Under the pieces are notes generated by a model. It was given only the letters and a program-made list of their open reading frames with translations, did no database searches and was not told the DNA's origin. From Pseudobdellovibrionaceae bacterium (GTDB taxonomy: Bacteria; Bdellovibrionota; Bdellovibrionia; Bdellovibrionales; Bdellovibrionaceae), in contig JAYUJM010000096.1 in assembly GCA_043765175.1 (NCBI GenBank), forward strand, positions 3,900 to 67,899: a stretch of 64,000 nucleotides of DNA, written 5' to 3'. The translations under genes and the position numbers were made by a program. This document shows positions 24,074-49,375 of the stretch, piece by piece. Each line of letters begins with the position of its first letter. Position 1 is the stretch's first letter.

Positions 24074-24544
24074 TTAAAAAGGAGCCTCTTGGTCAAATCG
24101 AGAGTTTGTAGCGGGACTTAAGTTAAGCGTTTTTTTTAGAAAAATAGCCCTTTGTCGACTTAGACCATCTTCTACACCAACTGGTAAAAATTTTTTAGTT
24201 TCATTTTCATATTGCTCGACTATAACTTGAACATTTATTTCATAGGGTCGTCTGGGGCCAAGTATAGTGACCTTGGTCTGGTAACGATAATAAGGATCAT
24301 CTAGGATGACTAGATCATCTTGAATAGGTTCAAATTTATCATCGTGATAATGAGAAAAGATTTCACGACCGTTCATGCTGACTTTTTTTGTTTTACCAAC
24401 GACAACATTAATGGCTTTTCTTATATCTGCTATTTGTTGCGGTTGTTCTATTAAATAATAGCCGGGAGTTTGACAACTGGATATTACAAAAAATAAGTAC
24501 AAAATAAATAATGTTTTATTTTTTAACTGCATTATTCCAATCAC
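24074..24544 (-). CDS. Hypothetical lipoprotein
   Basis: Lipobox FFVISSC. Confidence 0.7.
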
Positions 24545-39253: not shown

Positions 39254-39583
39254 TTGAAATATAAAAAGGATTTTATGGAAGAATTTAAATTTGTTATCAG
39301 AAGTTTAGTATTAGCTAGCCTTATTATAATAGTTTCACAATATCAATGGAACAACGAAACATTAGAATCAAAAGCCCAAACTTTTTTTGTAGAATCAAGT
39401 ACAGCTGAATATTTGCGTGAAGCCGCCGCCGGAGGAGTTAAATTCATTAAAGAATCTGGCCAGAAAAGTTATGCCTATATAAACCATAAGTTTTTTAGTA
39501 AAGACAAAGCTAACAGAAATCCTTCGTTAAATAAAAATGCAGAGCCTGAATTATATCCAGACTCTGTTATTGAAGAATATTAG
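39254..39583 (+). CDS. Small membrane-anchored hypothetical protein
   Basis: N-terminal TM FVIRSLVLASLIIIVSQY; start probably ATG near 39275. Confidence 0.6.
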   Translation: MKYKKDFMEEFKFVIRSLVLASLIIIVSQYQWNNETLESKAQTFFVESSTAEYLREAAAGGVKFIKESGQKSYAYINHKFFSKDKANRNPSLNKNAEPELYPDSVIEEY

Positions 39584-39584
39584 A

Positions 39585-39761
39585 TTATTTCTTACCAGCA
39601 ACAGGAGCTGTTGATGATGAAGATTGAGTGTTTACTTTTCCAGGAACAAAAGCTGTCTTATCGCTACGTAAACCATTGTTTGAAAAATTTCTCATGCACT
39701 GAGCTTGTGAAACTGAAGCAGCTGCTAATACTAGTAACAAAGACCCGATAAATGATTTCAT
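39585..39761 (-). CDS. Unannotated 58-aa secreted peptide related to the Hit/Bd0108-like protein
   Basis: Hand translation MKSFIGSLLLVLAAASVSQAQCMRNFSNNGLRSDKTAFVPGKVNTQSSSSTAPVAGKK; AAGGAG RBS; signal peptide ending SQA. Confidence 0.85.
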   Translation of the reverse strand: MKSFIGSLLLVLAAASVSQAQCMRNFSNNGLRSDKTAFVPGKVNTQSSSSTAPVAGKK

Positions 39762-39803
39762 ATAAACTCCTTCGTTTAATTAGTTATTCGTTAAAATAAG
39801 TAA

Positions 39804-39819
39804 TGCTAAAGAAGTGCCA
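39804..39819 (-). promoter_or_regulatory. sigma54-type promoter of the 58-aa peptide gene
   Basis: Minus strand TGGCAC-TTCTT-TAGCA (GG-N10-GC; one mismatch), 43 nt upstream of ATG. Confidence 0.55.
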
Positions 39820-39872: not shown

Positions 39873-39895
39873 GTCGTTTCATCCTGAGAAACGAC
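39873..39895. promoter_or_regulatory. Inverted repeat (terminator or operator) between hit-like gene and peptide gene
   Basis: GTCGTTTC-N7-GAAACGAC, T-run on the + side only. Confidence 0.45.
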
Positions 39896-39964
39896 TAATT
39901 TTTTTACATATTTTGTTTTGAATTAGACAGATGTATCTAAATGAAACGCTTATTATAAACCTGT

Positions 39965-40237
39965 TTATCGCGTGCCTTTGGCATTCGTTGACGAACCGTT
40001 AGGATCTGTTTTGCTTTTACCAGGCTGAGCTATATTTTTGCCATCAGTTAAACGACGATTTGAATTTTGGCATGTTACACAGGCGCCATGATTTACTCCT
40101 GGAACTAATGCGTTTGCCTCAGATTCACTACTGCCTTTATTCATTGCTAAATTAGGATCCTCTCCAGATCCTGCAAAAACCAAATTAGATACAAAAAATA
40201 ATAATAAAAACAAAAATTTCATAAAATGCCTTTCCAT
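39965..40237 (-). CDS. Hit-locus small secreted disordered protein, Bd0108-like
   Basis: Signal peptide, GEDPN motif, CVTC (CxxC), G/S/T/K-rich tail; immediately downstream of the YD-repeat gene as in the B. bacteriovorus hit locus. Likely start ATG 40222. Confidence 0.8.
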   Translation of the reverse strand: MERHFMKFLFLLLFFVSNLVFAGSGEDPNLAMNKGSSESEANALVPGVNHGACVTCQNSNRRLTDGKNIAQPGKSKTDPNGSSTNAKGTR

Positions 40238-41916
40238 TATAAATATAACTCTTGAGTCGCAGGAGCAATCACATCAAGCAAATTATTAAATGCACTGGCC
40301 ACTTGAGAAGCCACAGTAGGTCCATCTGGGCTATCTACTTTTTGAATTTCTCCAGTAGGCTTATAAATAACTTTTATAGTACCTAAACCCGGGCGAGTGA
40401 CTATCGACGGTTTTCCATAGCGCTCTTCGTAATCGATTTTTACAACTTTTTTAGCTTGATCAGTAATTGTTTGAATGCGTCCTTTTAAATCGTAGGTCAT
40501 TACTATTTTTTGACCTTCAGTGTTTTCGGCGTTGACCAAATTACCCTTAGCATCATATTTAAATTGTGTTGTTTTTGATGAGATCTGTTTATTTTTATCA
40601 TTCATTAAAATTGATTTCACAGAAGACACTTTTTTATTAGTATCGTCATATGAATATTCAATTTTTGTTAAACCTGCTGTTTTTGCTTTAACTAAACCGT
40701 CAGCAAAATACTCAAAATCAACGCGATCTGCATTGTTTTTTATAGTAATTGGTTTGCCAAGTGTTTCGTGATAAGTAATATCACGAGTATTTCCGTTTGT
40801 AACAGTTTGCACACGTGATAAAATCACTTCACCAGTAGCTAATTGTTTGTGCCAAAATTCATACCTATTATTTGCTACTGTTTCTTTTCCACAAACTTTT
40901 TTTGCTGTTGACCAGTAGTTGTATTTTGGATTTGTAGTTGAAACTTCATATTTATAGCTTTCTACACATTTTTCACGATCTGTAAAACTTGTTACCCAAT
41001 CTTTTACATTGTCATATTTAATCGCCACAAAAGTTTTATCTGGCCAGCTGGCCTTAGTCATATTGTGGAATTCATTATATTCAAAGTTATAAACATCAGT
41101 GTCTTTTTTAGCCCAAGCATTTTTATTCCAAATAAGATCATCCTGTTGATTATATTTATATTCAGAAACTAAACTGTTAGGTCCTGTAATTTTTTGAACT
41201 TTTTTATTTGGAAAATATTTAAAATTTATTTTTCTAGAATTATTATCTTCAATTTGTGTTAACAAATTGTTTAGATATTCAAATTTTAAAAAATTGCCAT
41301 TTTTATCATACATATGAGTCAGTTTGCCATCAGTCGAAAAGCGCTGATAGCTTCCATCAACAAGGGTTCTGGTATAAACACCTTTTGATAAAACAACATT
41401 TTCGACTTCTTTACCATTTGCTGATAATTTTTGTCCTTCTTTAATTGTAACGCCCAAACCATATTGATTTGCATAGTTAGATCTAATTTCTTGATCATCA
41501 AATAATTGCGTTTTTAAATTAGTCCAATATTCAGCACTACTGGAAGAAAATTTTTTATCAGCTTTCATTTTAGCTATAATAGAAGTTATTGTTTTATCGA
41601 CTTCTGCTTTGGTTAGTTCTTTTGCAGAAAATATAATTTCCTGACCATCGCCACATTCAGAAATTTTAACTGATCCCTCTGCCGTCAATTGAAGTTTAGT
41701 TTCATATTCTGAACACCATCCAAAACCAAACATGCCATTATAAATTGTCCGACTTTTATACGCACGCAAAATTCGCATATCATAACCATTACCTGGTATT
41801 TCCATATCAACCCATGAATTTGTATAACCTGCGTTGTTCATATCAACTAAGCCATAAGCTTTCATCGACAATAAACCTAAACATATAACCATCAATTTTT
41901 TAAAGTTCATATCCAT
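40237..41916 (-). CDS. YD/RHS-repeat exported protein, Bd0109-like (DUF6531-type N-terminus)
   Basis: Signal peptide; RAYKSR..YNGMFGFGWCS.YET; YDKNGN, YNQQDDL, YDAKGNL, YDLKGRI repeats; no PxxxxDPxG cleavage motif or toxin tip. Confidence 0.85.
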   Translation of the reverse strand: MDMNFKKLMVICLGLLSMKAYGLVDMNNAGYTNSWVDMEIPGNGYDMRILRAYKSRTIYNGMFGFGWCSEYETKLQLTAEGSVKISECGDGQEIIFSAKELTKAEVDKTITSIIAKMKADKKFSSSSAEYWTNLKTQLFDDQEIRSNYANQYGLGVTIKEGQKLSANGKEVENVVLSKGVYTRTLVDGSYQRFSTDGKLTHMYDKNGNFLKFEYLNNLLTQIEDNNSRKINFKYFPNKKVQKITGPNSLVSEYKYNQQDDLIWNKNAWAKKDTDVYNFEYNEFHNMTKASWPDKTFVAIKYDNVKDWVTSFTDREKCVESYKYEVSTTNPKYNYWSTAKKVCGKETVANNRYEFWHKQLATGEVILSRVQTVTNGNTRDITYHETLGKPITIKNNADRVDFEYFADGLVKAKTAGLTKIEYSYDDTNKKVSSVKSILMNDKNKQISSKTTQFKYDAKGNLVNAENTEGQKIVMTYDLKGRIQTITDQAKKVVKIDYEERYGKPSIVTRPGLGTIKVIYKPTGEIQKVDSPDGPTVASQVASAFNNLLDVIAPATQELYL

Positions 41917-41938: not shown

Positions 41939-42817
41939 TCAGACTTTAATTGTAACAATTTTTTTAATCATGACTCCACCTAAAATTTGTAATCCTAGCA
42001 TTCCGGCTAGTATCACTAGACCTAAGGTTGTATTAAACATAGGTTTCATATAGGCAGGATCTACTGCAAAGAAAACAGCACCTAAAATAAAAGGAATTGA
42101 AGTGACTATTATTCCTTGCATGACTCCTTGAGCTGTCATTGCGGAGATTTTTTTTTCAAGCTTTTGTCGTTCTCGAATTGTGCTCACAATAGTTGTGAAT
42201 GTTTCAGATAAATTTCCACCAGTTTCTTTTAAGATATTGATGGCCGTTACAAACATTTGAACATCTGGGCGAGGAATTCTTTCGCCTAAGTCAGTTAAAG
42301 CTTCTTCAAAACTTTGACCGAATTGCGTTTGTGTAATGACTTGTGCAAACTCCGATTTAATTGGGTTTGCCATGATGTCGACAACTCTTTGCATTGATTG
42401 TTGCGGATTAGATCCAGACTTAATTCCATTTCCCATAATTGTTAAAGCATCTACCATTTGATCAACAAATTGGGTGCACTTTTTTTCGTATAAATGTTTA
42501 TAAATCATCGGTACTACTTGAAAACCTGCTATTCCCATAGATAAACCAAAAAATGAAGCCATTGCAATATTTGGCAAGCATAAAATAAAAAATAAAAACC
42601 CTAAACCAAAAGTTGTAATCAATAACAATCGAGTTACTTTTTTTTCGTCAACTTCCATTCCAAGTAATTTCATGTGTAAAATAATTTGTGATTTTCTACT
42701 AATACTTTTTGCATAGACTTTGGTAAAAATTTTATCGGCCCAAATATAAATAGCCGCAAAAACAGATAAACCAAATAATGGCAGCATTATCCATTCATTT
42801 GCAAGAAGCTGATGCAT
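41939..42817 (-). CDS. tadB: Tad inner-membrane platform protein TadB (T2SS F family)
   Basis: FVDQMVDAL.IMGNGIKSG, ETGGNLSETF..I..TIRERQKLEKKI.AMTAQG; TM helices. Confidence 0.92.
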   Translation of the reverse strand: MHQLLANEWIMLPLFGLSVFAAIYIWADKIFTKVYAKSISRKSQIILHMKLLGMEVDEKKVTRLLLITTFGLGFLFFILCLPNIAMASFFGLSMGIAGFQVVPMIYKHLYEKKCTQFVDQMVDALTIMGNGIKSGSNPQQSMQRVVDIMANPIKSEFAQVITQTQFGQSFEEALTDLGERIPRPDVQMFVTAINILKETGGNLSETFTTIVSTIRERQKLEKKISAMTAQGVMQGIIVTSIPFILGAVFFAVDPAYMKPMFNTTLGLVILAGMLGLQILGGVMIKKIVTIKV

Positions 42818-42819
42818 GC

Positions 42820-45003
42820 TTAGCTCACTTTCTTTGTGGCTGTTATATTATTTGAAGGAACTGATGTAACAACTGGTTTAGGTACTTCATTGGAAAATAT
42901 TTCCATTGGAATATGTCCGCCTTTATCTTTTATTTCTTGAACAAAAGAAGGTACTGTTCCTGTCGCTTGAAATTGTCCTAATATTTTTCTATTTTTATCA
43001 TATCCAGTTTCTTTAAATCTAAATATTTCACCTAAACTAATTATATCACCCTGCATACCAAGAACTTCAGTAATGCTTATTATTTTTCGACTTCCATCAG
43101 ATAAACGAACGATTTGCACTATCAAATCCACAGCACCGGCGATTTGTTCACGAATAGCTCGAAGTGGCAAATCAAGTCCTGACATCATTACTAAAGTTTC
43201 TAAACGCGCTACACATTCTCGGGGTGAATTCGCGTGAGTTGTTGTCATTGAACCGTCATGGCCTGTATTCATCGCTTGGAGCATATCTAAAGCTGCTCCA
43301 TCACGTGTTTCTCCGACAACAATTCGATCAGGTCGCATTCGTAAAGCATTTTTAATTAAATCTCGAATTGTGACTGCATTTGTACCTTCCATCGAGGGTG
43401 GTCGTGTTTCAAGTCTGACAACATGTTCTTGCATCATTTGTAATTCAGCAGCATCTTCGACTGTTATGATTCTTTCATGTGATGGAATAAATTGTGATAT
43501 CATATTTAGCAATGAAGTTTTTCCTGAGCCTGTACCACCGCTAATAACAACGTTATATCCATATTCAACTGAAATTTTTAAAAACTCTAACATATTTAAG
43601 GTTGCACTACCGTAGTCGGCATACTTTTGTGGTGAAATTCCACCTTTTTTAAATTTTCGAATAGTTAATGCAGGTCCATCTAAGGCTAATGGTTCAATAA
43701 CAGCATTCACACGACTTCCATCTTTCAAGCGGGCATCAACGTAAGGTGATGCACTATTAATTTGTCGACCAAGTGGCGTTACAATGCGTTCAATAATTCT
43801 TCTTAAATGATCGTTTGATGTAAACTTAATTCCGCTGAGTTGGACTTTACCACTTTTTTCAACAAAAATCTTCGAGGCTCCGTTAACCATAATTTCTGAA
43901 ATGCTTGGATCTGCCAACATATCTTCTAGTGGACCTAAACCAAGTGCTTCTTCTAAAACTTCTTTCACCATTTTTTGTCGATCTTCTCGGGCCAAATCAG
44001 GTGCTTCTTTATCAACTATTTGTCCGATATCTCGTTGAGTTTTAGCACGAACTTCTTTTTCTTTTCCTTCGCTATCACCAGCTTCAGCAAGAATCTTTTT
44101 CAAATCCACAGTGCGAATAAGTTCTGAATGAACTCTTAATTTTAATAAAGTTCTAGCATCATAACCATTCGGGTTATTTGAACTATTCACTGCTTCTGCG
44201 TTACTAGCTGCTACTGGATTAGTCGCTTTAGGTTTTTGCAAAGTTTTTAATTTTTGCAAAGTACCGCTACTCAGCTTGCGTATAAAATCAAAATAAGCAT
44301 TTGAAATAGGACTTTTAGGATTTGTAACAACAAAGGGTTTCGACTGAACAAGGGATGCCATAGTTGTATTTTCATCTGATGGTATCATTCCCATTGGCAC
44401 TAATCCCAAATGTTGAGAAATCAACTGTGGTTGTAAACCATTAGATCCAAATTTATTAATAACCAGCTGAAACATTTCTTTTGGATAAGTATTCGTCAAT
44501 AATTCATTTATTAATCTTTGAGTTTGTTGAACAACTAATATTTCTGGAGTAGTCACAATTGTAATGGCTGTGGCATCTTGTAGAATTGCATTTTGCATTG
44601 GACCAATATCATTTCCACAATCAACAACAATAAACTTAAAACTTCTTGAAAAAAATTCAATCAGCTTTGATAAATTTTCAGGACTTACGCTAAGTATTTC
44701 ATCTGGTCCGCGCACAGCGCCTAAAAAAGAAAAACCTGCTGGATGTTGTGCTACAATTTGTTGTATTGGTGTTGCATTTAAAGATTGTGTAGAATTAGCT
44801 AGCTCACGCAATGTTTTAACTGGTTTTAGTCCAGTAATAATATTTTGATCACCTGCGCTTTTGCTATCACAATCAATAAGTAAAACAGGAGTACGTAATT
44901 CTTGAGTCATTGCCGCAGTCAAGTTTGCAGCAAAAATTGATTTACCAACTCCGCCTTTACCGCCGACTATTGCAATTAAACTACAATTTGGATTCAATGC
45001 CAT
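42820..45003 (-). CDS. tadA: TadZ/CpaE (MinD/ParA-like)-TadA/CpaF ATPase fusion
   Basis: N-terminal GGKGGVGKS deviant Walker A; C-terminal LGLGPLE..L.DP.ISEIMVNG, SGGTGSGKT, LRMRPDRIVVGE, AMNTGHDGS. Confidence 0.93.
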   Translation of the reverse strand: MALNPNCSLIAIVGGKGGVGKSIFAANLTAAMTQELRTPVLLIDCDSKSAGDQNIITGLKPVKTLRELANSTQSLNATPIQQIVAQHPAGFSFLGAVRGPDEILSVSPENLSKLIEFFSRSFKFIVVDCGNDIGPMQNAILQDATAITIVTTPEILVVQQTQRLINELLTNTYPKEMFQLVINKFGSNGLQPQLISQHLGLVPMGMIPSDENTTMASLVQSKPFVVTNPKSPISNAYFDFIRKLSSGTLQKLKTLQKPKATNPVAASNAEAVNSSNNPNGYDARTLLKLRVHSELIRTVDLKKILAEAGDSEGKEKEVRAKTQRDIGQIVDKEAPDLAREDRQKMVKEVLEEALGLGPLEDMLADPSISEIMVNGASKIFVEKSGKVQLSGIKFTSNDHLRRIIERIVTPLGRQINSASPYVDARLKDGSRVNAVIEPLALDGPALTIRKFKKGGISPQKYADYGSATLNMLEFLKISVEYGYNVVISGGTGSGKTSLLNMISQFIPSHERIITVEDAAELQMMQEHVVRLETRPPSMEGTNAVTIRDLIKNALRMRPDRIVVGETRDGAALDMLQAMNTGHDGSMTTTHANSPRECVARLETLVMMSGLDLPLRAIREQIAGAVDLIVQIVRLSDGSRKIISITEVLGMQGDIISLGEIFRFKETGYDKNRKILGQFQATGTVPSFVQEIKDKGGHIPMEIFSNEVPKPVVTSVPSNNITATKKVS

Positions 45004-45022
45004 AATTTTTTATCCTCAGATT

Positions 45023-46729
45023 TTATTCTTTTAATCTAAATTTTTTCTTAACTTGTTCAACGCCAGCACTTGCAGAGGATTTAATAATTGGTGTCACAAA
45101 GACAACGAAATTTCCACCATCTTTACGATACCCTTTGCCAGCAGATAAAGTGAGTAATGCTTTCGGATCAGTTGGTATTCCGTAATCATTTGAACTTGAT
45201 TTGCTAATCACACCACCAAATGCAGCACTTTGACGATCACGTACAGTAATTGTTGTTGAAATATTAGTGGTCGGAGTAAGTGTGTCACCAGTTGTTGTAG
45301 ATGAAACGACTAGGCCACCTAATTTAACTAGTCCAGCTCGAGGCTGCGTGATTTCCGGTTTAACAGAAACGCTAACAGAACTAACAGCACCATTTTGACT
45401 ATTTTTAGAACTTAAAGTTCTTGCAATAGTCGCCTGTCCTTTATTTTCTGTTAATACAGAAGCCGTGTCTAAGACTTTTAAAAATCCGTGGGTTTTTCCC
45501 CATTGAATTTTAGGAAAAATATTTTGGACAAGGGCCGCTAATGAATCAATACTGTTTTGTGATTGCTGAGCTGTATTCAATTGTAAGGCACTAGTCGTTG
45601 AAATAATGGGTTGAAAATCAAATTTAAAATTTTTCGCATATCTTTCACTAAATTCAACAAAGTGGACTACTATTTGAATCATCTTTTCAGGTGGTTCTTC
45701 CTTGTCTTCAGCTTTTCGAACATTGATTAAATTTAATATGTAATCTCCAGCTCCGCCGGTGATACTTCGATCTTTAATTAATAAATTTGGAACGCCACCC
45801 ATATTTGTATTTGTCACTGAAGCGGGTAGGTAAATAGCCACCAAATCTTGAACTCGAGTTTTTTCTTCTTGGCTATTTACAGTGCCTTCAAGCTTAATGT
45901 AATCGCCCACAACAGTGATAGTGACTTCGGGATTATTAATTTCACGCGCGATGTAATCCACAATTCTTTTTCTGGCGACAGGACTTAGTGTCACTAAACT
46001 TTTCACTGCGATAGGAGCAGTTCCTGCAGCAGCCCCTCCTGCTGTTCCAGGAGTTTGTCCATATGTTGTAATTACACTTCCTAATCGATTTAAATCTTGG
46101 GGTAACATGACGTAGCCATCGATGACAACGCCACCATTCACCGCTTTAAATTCCAGGCCTTCGATGTCAATTAATAGCGCTTTTAAATCACGTATGGCTT
46201 TATCAACTGCAGAGTCCCGAATATCTAAATGGAGTTCTGCATATATTTGACCTGTTTTTTTATTGTGTAATGTCACTATTCCGCTGGCAGCAGCTAGGGG
46301 CTCAATTCGAAAAATATCTGAATTTTTAATTCGCGCAATACTAATCATTGTTTGACCCACAGGAAGTATTTTCAAAGGCTGACTTGGTATTAATATTTCT
46401 TCATCTATTTTAACACCTTTTATCAATGATAAATGACGGCGAATTCTTCTTTTATTTGGTAAGGCTTCTGCTAAAATTTTAACGGGTTCTTTTGAATCTT
46501 CTAAATATTCATCTTCAACAGCTGATTGAACAAGTGTTGATTCAACTGGTGGCTTCGGTTCTACAGGATTATCTATCCCGTTTTGAGCCCACAAATTTTG
46601 AAATAAAAAAATAAATAAAAAATAAATTTTTAACTTATTGAACTTGAATAAATAACTATTTTCCTGGTTTAATTTGTCCACCATTATAGTTTGGCTGAAT
46701 TTGCGTTGGAAATCCACTGGACTGGCCAA
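45023..46729 (-). CDS. rcpA: Tad secretin RcpA/CpaC with BON-like domains
   Basis: N-terminal Ig-like segment, IKLEGTVNSQEEK BON pattern, MIQIVVHFVE..AAFGGVI..FVVFVTP secretin core. True start probably near 46687, not 46729. Confidence 0.8.
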   Translation of the reverse strand: MASPVDFQRKFSQTIMVDKLNQENSYLFKFNKLKIYFLFIFLFQNLWAQNGIDNPVEPKPPVESTLVQSAVEDEYLEDSKEPVKILAEALPNKRRIRRHLSLIKGVKIDEEILIPSQPLKILPVGQTMISIARIKNSDIFRIEPLAAASGIVTLHNKKTGQIYAELHLDIRDSAVDKAIRDLKALLIDIEGLEFKAVNGGVVIDGYVMLPQDLNRLGSVITTYGQTPGTAGGAAAGTAPIAVKSLVTLSPVARKRIVDYIAREINNPEVTITVVGDYIKLEGTVNSQEEKTRVQDLVAIYLPASVTNTNMGGVPNLLIKDRSITGGAGDYILNLINVRKAEDKEEPPEKMIQIVVHFVEFSERYAKNFKFDFQPIISTTSALQLNTAQQSQNSIDSLAALVQNIFPKIQWGKTHGFLKVLDTASVLTENKGQATIARTLSSKNSQNGAVSSVSVSVKPEITQPRAGLVKLGGLVVSSTTTGDTLTPTTNISTTITVRDRQSAAFGGVISKSSSNDYGIPTDPKALLTLSAGKGYRKDGGNFVVFVTPIIKSSASAGVEQVKKKFRLKE

Positions 46730-47516
46730 AGGAATTGGTTACCTTATTTAAAACTGTTTCTGATGTTGAGGCGGGCAAACGCCGACCCACACTTTTGTCA
46801 TTTGGATTACGCAGCAAAAAGTACAGACTGCCTGGACTTGTGGCTATAAGTGCCAATAAATCTTGGGCTTCTGAAGGATTTACTTCAATTGTTAGTGAAC
46901 TGTATTTTGTGTCGCCCGTTAATGTATTTAAAACTAAATTTTTTCCAGAAGCATCACGCTCAATAGTTCGTGGCAAATTATTATTAATATTCACACCTGT
47001 TGCTAATATAATTACATTTTCTTTGTAAAGCACAGTGCTTTTTGTTTGATTCACACCTTTACCTGATTCAACGATTGCAAATATGTCAACACGATCCCCA
47101 GGTCGTATTAATTTTGCATTAGCACGTGCCTCATCAACAGGAATTGTTACTGCTCGCATATTTAATGAAACTTGTGGAGCCATTCCAGTTTCGGGTCCTG
47201 GTTCTAACATTTTATTTTTTGTAAATGTTTGCCCTTTTTTGATTGGAATAGCCGCAACTTTACCGATGATATCACCAATATCTTTGTAGGCTTCAGGTTC
47301 AACTTCATCTTTTAGTTTTTCCTTAACTTCAAGTTTATCATCAAAAACAGTATCCATACTGCCAATGTCTTCTTTGGCGACAACAACACGAACTTTAGAA
47401 CCCATTTTTTTATCCATCTCAGCTTTTTTTTCTTGAGTGTATGAATACAACATAAAGGTCGCAAAAATTCCTGCTCCTAAAGAGATCCATAAATTTCTTG
47501 ATTCATTTGGTCCCAT
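46656..47516 (-). CDS. cpaB: Flp pilus assembly protein CpaB/RcpC
   Basis: TM, SAF domain VVVAKEDI..IGKVAAIPIKKGQ, MRAVTIPVD, IRPGDRVDI. Confidence 0.92.
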   Translation of the reverse strand: MGPNESRNLWISLGAGIFATFMLYSYTQEKKAEMDKKMGSKVRVVVAKEDIGSMDTVFDDKLEVKEKLKDEVEPEAYKDIGDIIGKVAAIPIKKGQTFTKNKMLEPGPETGMAPQVSLNMRAVTIPVDEARANAKLIRPGDRVDIFAIVESGKGVNQTKSTVLYKENVIILATGVNINNNLPRTIERDASGKNLVLNTLTGDTKYSSLTIEVNPSEAQDLLALIATSPGSLYFLLRNPNDKSVGRRLPASTSETVLNKVTNSFGQSSGFPTQIQPNYNGGQIKPGK

Positions 47517-47553
47517 AAAAAACCTCGATTAAAATATATTCAATACCAATTTA

Positions 47554-48090
47554 CTACTGACTCGGTTCACAATCGGCATTTAAACAGATTCCATAAACGG
47601 TCTTAACCCATATTTCTGGAGTTTGTGGCAATTCCTCTTCAGATTTAGCCGGAAGTCTAGATACTGCAGACCAGACCGAAGACTTGTTTGCAAAACTATG
47701 ATTACTGAATTCAGTTCCTTGACCGTTTCCAGTTTGGCTAAACATCGAAATACTTCGAACTGTTACAGGCCATTTACCTTTATTAAAATCTTTTTTCTGA
47801 TACCCATCACCAATGACACCGTGAACACGATTCATTGATTTCGCATAATTTGAAGTTCCCGCTCCAGGACGAAAATAAATGAGATTAGCACGAAATCGAA
47901 AAGTTTCTAATGTGTAATTATAAGATCCAATCGAGTTTAATATTCCTGAATGAACTGCGCCGAAAAAACCTAAAGAAAAATTAAAAACAATAACAACCAT
48001 AAATAACACTGGCAAAGCTTCTATCAAAGCCATTCCTTGATTATTCATTTTTTTCTTTTTTCTAAACTGAATTAAATTTATTTTTAACAT
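47554..48090 (-). CDS. TadE/TadF-like minor pilin
   Basis: NNQG/MALIEALPVLF class III processing site with E+5 and hydrophobic helix. Confidence 0.8.
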   Translation of the reverse strand: MLKINLIQFRKKKKMNNQGMALIEALPVLFMVVIVFNFSLGFFGAVHSGILNSIGSYNYTLETFRFRANLIYFRPGAGTSNYAKSMNRVHGVIGDGYQKKDFNKGKWPVTVRSISMFSQTGNGQGTEFSNHSFANKSSVWSAVSRLPAKSEEELPQTPEIWVKTVYGICLNADCEPSQ

Positions 48091-48674
48091 CCGTTATCCT
48101 CATGAGGAAAATAACGAGATTGATCATCCGTAAATCCAGAAAATTCTGTACGTATGACTTTATATTTTTCAGCTTGAAATTTTAAACATTCATCAACTGA
48201 TGGATTTCGTAGTAAAAAGGCATTCAAATTCATTTTGAATGAATCTTCATTGATGGCTATTTTTCCTAAAAATGGAATTTTTAACCCCTTAAATAATTTT
48301 AACTCTAGTGTGCTGCTAGATCCCGCCCAGGGGTGACGGGATTCATCACCTAGTGCATTAACTGCGTCTGCAGTAAAAGTTTTGGCATCTAAATCACCCA
48401 ATTTGTATTTTTTTAATTCAAACCAATTTGAACTTCCTTGAGTCAGCAGCGGAAAATATTTAGATAAATTTTCAAACTTTTTTACAGCAGCAGCCTCACT
48501 GGCTTCTTTGCTTGAATTACCAGAAGAGTACGCCCGTGCCGATGACCAAGTAATATATTGCGCTACTTCGATCGTCATTAATGAAAAAGTTAATGCAAAC
48601 ACAATAATGCCGCAGCAAATAACTAAAACAAATGAAAATAAAAATTCTGCAGCCACAAAACCTTGTTGATTCAT
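48084..48674 (-). CDS. TadE-like minor pilin
   Basis: NQQG/FVAAEFLFSF, E+5; AQYITWSSARAY. Confidence 0.82.
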   Translation of the reverse strand: MNQQGFVAAEFLFSFVLVICCGIIVFALTFSLMTIEVAQYITWSSARAYSSGNSSKEASEAAAVKKFENLSKYFPLLTQGSSNWFELKKYKLGDLDAKTFTADAVNALGDESRHPWAGSSSTLELKLFKGLKIPFLGKIAINEDSFKMNLNAFLLRNPSVDECLKFQAEKYKVIRTEFSGFTDDQSRYFPHEDNGC

Positions 48675-48683
48675 AGAATTATT

Positions 48684-48983
48684 TTACAACGGATCAGAAC
48701 TTAATGCTCGATTTATTGAATTAGGATGGCAATTTGCAGCCCTTTGACTGGGACCGCCTTTGATCGAGCTGCAGGGATTTTTCCAAGCACCGAACTCGCT
48801 CATGTTACGAACTTTACTAATTGATACATCTGCAAAGTTTTGCATTGTTTGTTTTTCACGAAGTTGTTTTGTGAAAAATAAAAATGTACCAATGAAAATA
48901 GTCATTAATAAAACTGCCTCGATTGCCAACTGACCATTTTCATTTTTAAGAATTTTTTTGGTTAATCGTCGGTTCTGTTCCAT
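48684..48983 (-). CDS. Flp/TadE-like minor pilin
   Basis: KNENG/QLAIEAVLLM, E+5; C-terminal Cys pair. Confidence 0.8.
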   Translation of the reverse strand: MEQNRRLTKKILKNENGQLAIEAVLLMTIFIGTFLFFTKQLREKQTMQNFADVSISKVRNMSEFGAWKNPCSSIKGGPSQRAANCHPNSINRALSSDPL

Positions 48984-49168
48984 GGAACTTTATCCTCGTC
49001 CCCACCACCAGGGTAGGGTTTAAATCCAGATCCAGTTGCCAGTTGAGTTTCGACCCGTGCAGCCAAACGCACTCCGCCCTTTTCAAAGGCCGTCTTCGGT
49101 GCTTTCATTAAGGTCGACATAAAGACGACCCCGCCCATCAACAAAAGGAGTACGTATTCTATTGTCAT
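48962..49168 (-). CDS. Flp-like pilin lacking a leader peptide (flp2-like)
   Basis: MTIEYVLLLLMGGVVF has the Flp EY motif but starts at the +2 position of a mature pilin; 102/207 G+C by hand count. Confidence 0.65.
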   Translation of the reverse strand: MTIEYVLLLLMGGVVFMSTLMKAPKTAFEKGGVRLAARVETQLATGSGFKPYPGGGDEDKVPWNRTDD

Positions 49169-49171
49169 GGG

Positions 49172-49375
49172 TTACTGATCAGAGGTAGCAGTACCCATAT
49201 CAGTACCTAACTTATCGGTTGCTTCATTAAATTTTCCAACGATTTTTCCTTTAAAAGCTAAGACTAATCCAACTACCACTACCAACAACAAAATATACTC
49301 TGTTGCGCCTTGGCCTTTTTCATTATTAGCTAAATTTTTTCGTAGACGATTTCTTAGATTTGAAAATAGTTTCAT
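49172..49375 (-). CDS. flp: Major Flp (type IVc/Tad) pilin
   Basis: NEKG/QGATEYILLLVVVVGLV; AAGGGAG RBS. Confidence 0.93.
   Translation of the reverse strand: MKLFSNLRNRLRKNLANNEKGQGATEYILLLVVVVGLVLAFKGKIVGKFNEATDKLGTDMGTATSDQ

Follow-up and report, generated by a model that had tools for sequence, protein, structure and literature searches.

Since 1992, the hit (host-interaction) locus has stood as the central and puzzling switch by which Bdellovibrio changes between predation and growth independent of prey. Its product Bd0108 (Hit) was described as a disordered protein in which C56 and C59 form a disulfide, and NMR and ITC showed that Bd0109 is contacted by the N-terminal part of Bd0108, residues 24-66 (Prehna et al., 2014, PMC4267844). 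The hit gene is co-transcribed with bd0109. The classic host-independence mutation, a common in-frame 42-bp deletion (Delta42), sits in the tail of Bd0108, where it removes residues 73-86 and leads to host independence together with over-long pili, and point mutants with host independence are altered at residues 70 and 72.

Regarding the DNA next to bd0108, a 261-bp sRNA of strain HD100 was reported between bd0103 and bd0108 (bases 96455-96716), which was detected by RNA-seq and RT-PCR, called non-coding, had no obvious targets and showed higher levels in every bd0108 mutant (Capeness et al., 2013, PMC3818213). The transcript was still cited as a small RNA in the later structural study (Prehna et al., 2014, PMC4267844). 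In Halobacteriovorax (Bacteriovorax) marinus SJ, BMS0183 and BMS0184 were described as a tandem hit duplication (Crossman et al., 2012, PMC3526173), and a homology of these proteins to Bd0108 was disputed with the remark that the two small neighbours have "no significant homology" (Prehna et al., 2014, PMC4267844). In B. exovorus JSS, the same authors described A11Q_2208, a Hit-like protein beside the second, distal RHS paralogue A11Q_2207.

The window, that is the whole stretch of 64,000 nucleotides analysed here, comes from a Pseudobdellovibrionaceae bacterium with a genome of 2.79 Mb and a GC content of 33%, and its genus is probably also that of B. exovorus. The locus under study is arranged as follows:

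39254-39583, plus strand: Bd0103 homologue, convergent, closing the locus (BLASTP against the HD100 protein, E=1e-11)
39585-39761, minus strand: the gene here called S, encoding a 58-aa pre-peptide, MKSFIGSLLLVLAAASVSQAQCMRNFSNNGLRSDKTAFVPGKVNTQSSSSTAPVAGKK (from the open reading frame and positional orthologues)
39965-40222, minus strand: the Hit/Bd0108-like gene here called H, 85 aa from MKFLF or 90 aa from an upstream ATG at 40237
40237-41916, minus strand: toxin-less RHS/YD protein, homologue of Bd0109 (Pfam RHS_repeat and DUF6531)
41939-49375, minus strand: Tad/Flp pilus genes, upstream and in the same direction (Pfam and the Flp G/ATEY motif), with TadE/F-like ORFs among them
41939-42817, minus strand: tadB (Pfam)
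42820-45003, minus strand: tadZ-tadA fusion (Pfam)
45023-46729, minus strand: secretin gene cpaC (Pfam)
46656-47516, minus strand: cpaB (Pfam)
48962-49168 and 49172-49375, minus strand: Flp-type pilins (Flp G/ATEY motif)

The H protein has a signal peptide followed by GEDPN, CVTC and a tail, and matches Bd0108 by BLASTP with E=0.004 over the stretch from GEDPN to CxxC; this match and the convergent Bd0103 homologue identify the setting as the hit locus. Counted from the RHS gene, S comes second; it closes the Tad-pilus/RHS operon and is separated by 204 nt from H upstream of it. Its position, between the homologues of hit and bd0103, is the same in the window and in HD100. In the Tad ATPase of this locus (42820-45003, minus strand; 727 aa), a ParA/MinD-type (TadZ/CpaE-like) domain is fused to a T2SSE ATPase domain.

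A preliminary description of this DNA, made from its letters and open reading frames, had proposed that S is a hidden gene with a ribosome-binding site and a signal peptide, lacking the GEDPN segment and keeping one Cys of the CxxC. Re-reading of the gene bore out these structural points:

39699-39761, minus strand: signal peptide of S, residues 1-21, with n/h/c shape and the end SQA/QC (read from the sequence)
39585-39761, minus strand, after the signal peptide: mature S, about 37 aa, with the single Cys22 and a basic tail predicted to be disordered (from the open reading frame and alignment)
39767-39772, minus strand: Shine-Dalgarno sequence AAGGAG, 5 nt ahead of the S ATG

The word "hidden" holds only in part: the exact 58-aa protein is already present, without a name, in the public gene-call collections of NCBI, ENA and Logan. 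Searches against Pfam gave nothing meaningful for either S or H. The signal peptide is supported by its n/h/c regions and by a helix predicted by AlphaFold2 at residues 5-16, the only structure in a prediction made from 33 sequences; the mature part has a pLDDT of 55-60 and the model a pTM of 0.20, values that fit disorder and are no proof of it. S is a genuine gene for a single-Cys peptide of the Sec-exported type that is predicted to be intrinsically disordered.

To determine the distribution of S, three sets were searched with the RHS protein, namely 41 relatives of the window genome, 46 genomes around B. bacteriovorus and named public genomes, and the DNA downstream of each match was read. 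The RHS/YD protein is present in all 41 relatives (41/41), and the named relatives matched are Pseudobdellovibrio sp., 'Bdellovibrio sp. qaytius' and Pseudobdellovibrionaceae MAGs, which puts the window in the exovorus-like genus of low GC. The preliminary description had asked for a search of relatives' hit loci, HD100 included, and S lies in the same place in nearly all of the approximately 90 related loci with enough downstream DNA, among them HD100, covering both Bdellovibrio and the genus of the window organism as well as other families of the order. The Hit-like genes of these loci encode 74-132 aa; the S genes encode 52-79 aa, begin 140-370 nt past the Hit-like gene and have a strong ribosome site (of the AAAGGAG type ahead of nearly every S gene in the loci read), a signal peptide and a Cys. 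A third paralogue, here called T (58-64 aa, e.g. ..ACGSRAGGSLFKNTAATTSN..), occurs in about ten species of Bdellovibrio, approximately 250 nt downstream of S (loci L046, L047, L049-L052 and L054-L056).

Across 79 distinct S and T peptides, 77 have exactly one mature Cys and 67 have R, K, N or Q as their last residue, and in the alignment of 33 S sequences no residue other than Met1 and Cys22 is invariant. A GEDPN-type region (G-[ED]-DPN) is absent from window S and from nearly all other S proteins, the exception being L025, and a single Cys stands in place of CxxC. Two classes of known protein were considered for S and set aside. A lipoprotein would carry the lipobox [LVI][ASTVI][GAS]C, where the window sequence reads A-Q-C, with Gln at -1, and a lipobox-like context was found in only 4 of the 79 peptides. 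A Flp/type IVb pilin would have a class III leader with G/XXXXEY and a hydrophobic helix; S has neither this motif nor such a helix, and the true Flp genes of this locus are those at 48962-49375.

The substitutions between close relatives have a coding signature. Differences at codon positions 1, 2 and 3 number 0/0/14 between L035 and L037, 1/0/12 between L054 and L056 and 2/1/15 between HD100 and the closely related L034, and dN/dS lies at 0.00-0.25 between close species, a range shared by hit itself; these values argue that S is translated, protein-coding and under purifying selection. They bear directly on the published HD100 transcript. One genome of the panel is matched by the published forward primer at C1:96555-96574 and therefore carries the HD100 coordinates, and in this genome the next ORF after Bd0108, at 96483-96683, encodes the 66-aa orthologue of S, MKKIVQATIAMSLIASVAMANTGVSCKNNSGSGRHSSTAFKQEFKAKVAKDTSTKTAKEKTSKGWN, with AAAGGAGAG ahead of its ATG and a terminator past its stop. 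This ORF falls inside 96455-96716, and both published RT-PCR primers lie within it. The published sRNA and S thus share position and orientation, and the transcript inferred for the window has about the same length; the difference is that the former was reported as non-coding, whereas comparative evidence makes S protein-coding.

The transcript could still be a non-coding regulatory sRNA in which the reading frame is incidental, or at most an RNA of dual function. This interpretation has in its favour the published detection by RNA-seq and RT-PCR under a non-coding label (Capeness et al., 2013, PMC3818213) and the conserved hairpins of the region, which could be RNA elements. The third-position substitutions and the low dN/dS speak against an incidental frame, as do the ATG, Shine-Dalgarno sequence, signal-peptide shape and single Cys, all kept across two genera and several families despite DNA divergence; moreover, the HD100 locus has no family match in Rfam and the ORF already appears in NCBI pipelines as a hypothetical protein. 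We regard this interpretation as highly improbable, although a peptide-coding S transcript could also act as an RNA.

The original HD100 annotation is blank between Bd0103 and Bd0108, the supplements of Karunker et al. (2013) have no entry in this interval, later NCBI pipelines list the ORF as 'hypothetical protein' and UniRef labels the copy in B. bacteriovorus Tiberius 'Lipoprotein'. A full-text literature search found no paper that rereads the HD100 sRNA as an mRNA. The main text of a 2025 HD100 proteome paper mentions neither Bd0108 nor Bd0109, and by its own account small proteins were under-sampled. The preliminary description was right that novelty needed checking against HD100, but what had been described there is a transcript published as a non-coding sRNA and not a small gene. 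As one element of our overall explanation, we consider it probable that HD100 S is the coding identity of the published 261-nt 'sRNA', which would turn a puzzling RNA into a defined peptide that is open to synthesis and testing.

Regarding the relationship between S and Hit, an ungapped match to the C-terminal half of the 39965-40237 protein had been proposed, and re-reading gives the same 8 identities in 19 residues. Counted from 'SN' to the C-terminus, each tail has exactly 32 residues, of which 10 are identical, and the two proteins end in ..AGKK and ..KGTR. BLASTP of full-length window S against full-length H returned no alignment; local alignment of the mature tails gave z=3.75 and p=0.004 against 500 composition-preserving shuffles. 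Full-length profile comparison matched only the signal peptides and was uninformative, hence the mature parts were compared by hhalign, S from its Cys onward and Hit tails from CxxC onward. For all sequences this gave P=1.8e-3 over 40 columns, a score reached by 2 of 300 column shuffles; for the genus of the window, P=1.3e-3 (0 of 150 shuffles); and for Bdellovibrio, P=3.6e-6 with a probability of 87.5% (0 of 150 shuffles). In each of the three comparisons the alignment places the Cys of S opposite the second Cys of CxxC and extends to the C-terminus. The joint alignment has a common plan, in which the Cys is followed by a spacer of 8-18 residues, a core [LMF]-x-[DKN]-[KND]-T-[NA], a stretch rich in Ser, Thr, Gly and Lys, and a G-x-[RKNQ] end. 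The second gene of locus L025, which still has a DDPN motif, represents an intermediate form, and the tandem arrangement of the S and hit genes fits duplication.

These results have to be weighed against the possibility that S is a real secreted peptide without homology to Hit, the likeness arising from composition (both are disordered and rich in S, T, N, K and G) and from both having been cut at the Cys. Several comparisons are compatible with this. Besides the missing BLASTP match, the mature-only hhalign comparison for a mixed multi-family MAG set had no signal (P=0.35), and hmmsearch between the two families in both directions, among 34,418 genome decoy ORFs, gave weak E-values from 0.007 to >1, although members of the S family were strongly enriched among the top matches. 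Same-genome Hit-S pairs reached p<0.05 against composition-preserving shuffles in only 35% of cases, and no significant homology was seen for the two small B. marinus SJ neighbours (Prehna et al., 2014, PMC4267844). Against a compositional origin, two independent genus-level profiles align end to end with scores that no shuffle reaches in either genus, the 35% of pairs compares with 5% expected (mean z 1.29), the specific core and the G-x-[RKNQ] ends are shared, a DDPN intermediate exists and the genes are in tandem. The case for homology is thus built on alignments at the level of the genus, between sequences that evolve fast and are of low complexity; on their strength mature S is probably homologous to the Hit tail, in agreement with the earlier proposal of a secreted, N-terminally truncated paralogue, and a resemblance of composition is an unlikely explanation. 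One additional weak match of the S profile, at about 24074-24544 of the window, belongs to an unrelated 156-aa protein.

In Bdellovibrio, Hit and S of the same genome are closer to each other than in cross-genome pairs (p=0.0007), a tendency that is not significant in the genus of the window (p=0.155). Such co-variation in Bdellovibrio hints at gene conversion or co-evolution of the two sequences. Individual motifs were also seen to recur across the paralogues: NYQPGM occurs in the Hit tail of one species (L062) and in S of another (L063), NTNPVR in both Hit and S of L045, and DKTA in both Hit and S of L054 and likewise of L056. These motif swaps suggest either exchange between the paralogues or convergence.

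The alignment also indicates which part of Bd0108 is shared. At the genus level HD100 S 'GS-GRHSSTAFKQE' is paired with 'KGSRRHDDTVSREI' of Bd0108, residues 70-83, and the segment removed by Delta42 (residues 73-86) overlaps this aligned S-Hit core (Bd0108 ~70-83). We infer that the 19-residue motif of the window is the equivalent of the Bd0108 ~70-83 stretch. S would then be a free copy of the Hit switch segment without the Bd0109 anchor, an assignment that forms part of the explanation judged probable as a whole. The preliminary description had further suggested a two-peptide switch acting on the YD-repeat protein, and this suggestion found no support: nearly all of Bd0108 24-66, the region mapped as binding Bd0109, is missing from S, which corresponds to Hit from the second Cys on and so shares its tail.

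Compared with Bd0108, S is likewise small, of the Sec-exported type and disordered by prediction, and lies in the same locus, adjacent in tandem on the same strand, and both proteins continue after a Cys into a tail that contains the core of Bd0108 ~70-83 and has a G-x-[RKNQ]-type C-terminus. In contrast to Bd0108, S lacks the Bd0109-binding N-terminal GEDPN region (Bd0108 residues 24-55), has one Cys where Bd0108 has a disulfide-forming CxxC, is about 37 aa long in its mature form compared with about 78 aa, and has a sigma-54 promoter of its own where hit is co-transcribed with bd0109. The BMS0183/BMS0184 pair of B. marinus SJ resembles hit and S in consisting of two small signal-peptide proteins adjoining a Bd0109 homologue, but differs in belonging to another taxonomic order and in having two copies of about 67 aa, in addition to the disputed homology, and the work on this pair made no link to a second Bdellovibrio gene or to sigma-54. 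A11Q_2208 resembles S in having a Cys motif and a tail without the N-terminal Bd0109-binding region; unlike S, it has a full CxxC and lies beside the distal RHS paralogue, outside the Tad locus.

Two complete genomes depart from the usual arrangement of Hit itself. In L048, a Bdellovibrio genome of approximately 3.0 Mb, hit is shortened after GEDPNEA to 65 aa, without CxxC or tail, and is followed downstream by a whole S gene of 68 aa. The shortened hit agrees with the published remark that Bd0108 of strain W is without its C-terminal region, and in genomes of this kind S would be the sole carrier of the tail. In L021, a genome of 2,657,893 bp in the genus of the window organism that is probably B. 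exovorus JSS, the Tad locus has a Hit-like protein with GEDPN and without CxxC, followed by S; Prehna et al. (2014) left a Tad-locus pair of this type uncounted as a hit equivalent and chose the distal A11Q_2207/2208 pair.

Regarding the expression of S, three features flank the gene:

39804-39819, minus strand: sigma-54-type promoter TGGCAC-TTCTT-TAGCA, with the -24 GG at 39818-39817 and the -12 GC at 39806-39805
39873-39895: palindrome, with the core 39877-39889 reading TCTCAGGATGAAA on the coding strand (from a hairpin scan and recurrence)
39530-39566, minus strand: intrinsic terminator closing the S transcript, with a stem of 12 pairs and then a T-run

The promoter agrees with the consensus (TGGCAC-N5-TTGCW) at 10 of 11 positions, has the exact GG/GC spacing and lies 42 nt before the ATG, placing the inferred transcription start at about 39793; with the terminator it bounds a unit of approximately 260 nt. 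Sites scoring at least 10/11 number only 12 in the whole 2.79-Mb genome, and sites of at least 8/11 at 24-65 nt before the ATG are present in 45 of 46 S loci and in 9 of 9 T loci. The genome has one rpoN gene (Sigma54_DBD) and approximately 11 strong Sigma54_activat genes. Upstream of the promoter, a TCTCA-N3-TGAGA match of at least 9/10 was found in 54 of 76 promoter regions compared with 0.3% of shuffles, at an offset from the -24 element of 9 nt in Bdellovibrio, 57-60 nt in the genus of the window and 110-117 nt in others. A simple scan had marked the 39873-39895 hairpin as terminator-like, and a role as the hit terminator was set aside because the palindrome recurs at fixed promoter offsets, which led to the hairpin being reread as a conserved operator; it is probably a binding site for a regulator or an enhancer-binding protein. 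Two further candidate elements were noted in this region, a conserved box CTGTCTAA or TGTCAAA between the hit stop and the palindrome (39923-39930 in the window and at equivalent places elsewhere) and IHF-like sites YAA-N4-TTGATW close to the sigma-54 promoter.

With its own sigma-54-type promoter and the conserved palindrome, S would constitute a transcription unit of its own, another element of the explanation favoured here, and the separate regulation envisaged in the preliminary description gains support. The same features bear on the idea that S has a structural and not a regulatory role, as a lipoprotein or minor pilin of the Tad pilus machinery. Its place at the end of the Tad operon, the Cys just past the signal peptide and the UniRef label of the Tiberius copy could be read in this way, but a separate sigma-54 promoter and the induction in bd0108 mutants fit regulation better, and the mature part is predicted by AlphaFold2 to be unstructured. 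A structural role thus has very little probability.

Taken as a whole, the explanation that we consider probable is that S is an exported, tail-only paralogue of Hit, driven by sigma-54 and orthologous to the published sRNA. It adds a component that is missing from current models of the hit locus, for S carries just that tail of Bd0108 in which the classic host-independence deletion sits, under separate control, with sigma-54 and a specific operator indicated as the regulatory input. The presence of S from endobiotic Bdellovibrio to the relatives of epibiotic B. exovorus and in other families speaks for a core role of the peptide in the machinery of predation that is linked to the pilus.

With respect to mechanism, S in the periplasm or outside the cell would display the Hit 'output' segment without the Bd0109 anchor. 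Lacking an RHS anchor, it could mimic the Hit tail or compete with it for the tail's putative partner. The invariant single Cys of S would make disulfide pairing with Hit possible, and a mixed disulfide might be formed either with Hit or with the putative partner of the tail. The level of S would be set by a sigma-54 activator that reports the status of the pilus or of Hit, and S could in this manner be the feedback arm of the decision between predatory and axenic growth; the induction of the sRNA in bd0108 mutants suggests such a sigma-54-controlled arm.

A more far-reaching version of this model can be put forward tentatively, and in its entirety we think it rather unlikely to be correct. 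S would be a sigma-54-gated signalling peptide bearing the free Hit switch segment (Bd0108 ~70-86) and would provide the feedback arm in the choice between predation and host independence. An enhancer-binding protein at TCTCA-N3-TGAGA would induce S when signalling through Hit or the pilus fails, and S would then occupy a receptor of the Hit tail or pair with Hit by a disulfide. Gene conversion or co-evolution would keep Hit and S matched in each lineage, and, given the third copy in some species, the hit 'switch' would amount to a peptide family.

The T copies point to an enlargement of the peptide family in the species that have them, and each T has its own sigma-54 promoter with two copies of a TCTCA-N3-TGAGA-like palindrome. 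Locus L093 contains two identical S copies approximately 700 nt apart (+527 and +1229 nt past the RHS gene), which stem either from a recent duplication in tandem or from an artefact of assembly. Finally, L094 (CALQIT020000003.1), titled 'MAG: Streptomyces griseus', has a typical Bdellovibrionales hit locus with RHS gene, Hit-like gene and S with a sigma-54 promoter, and the bin looks mislabelled or contaminated.
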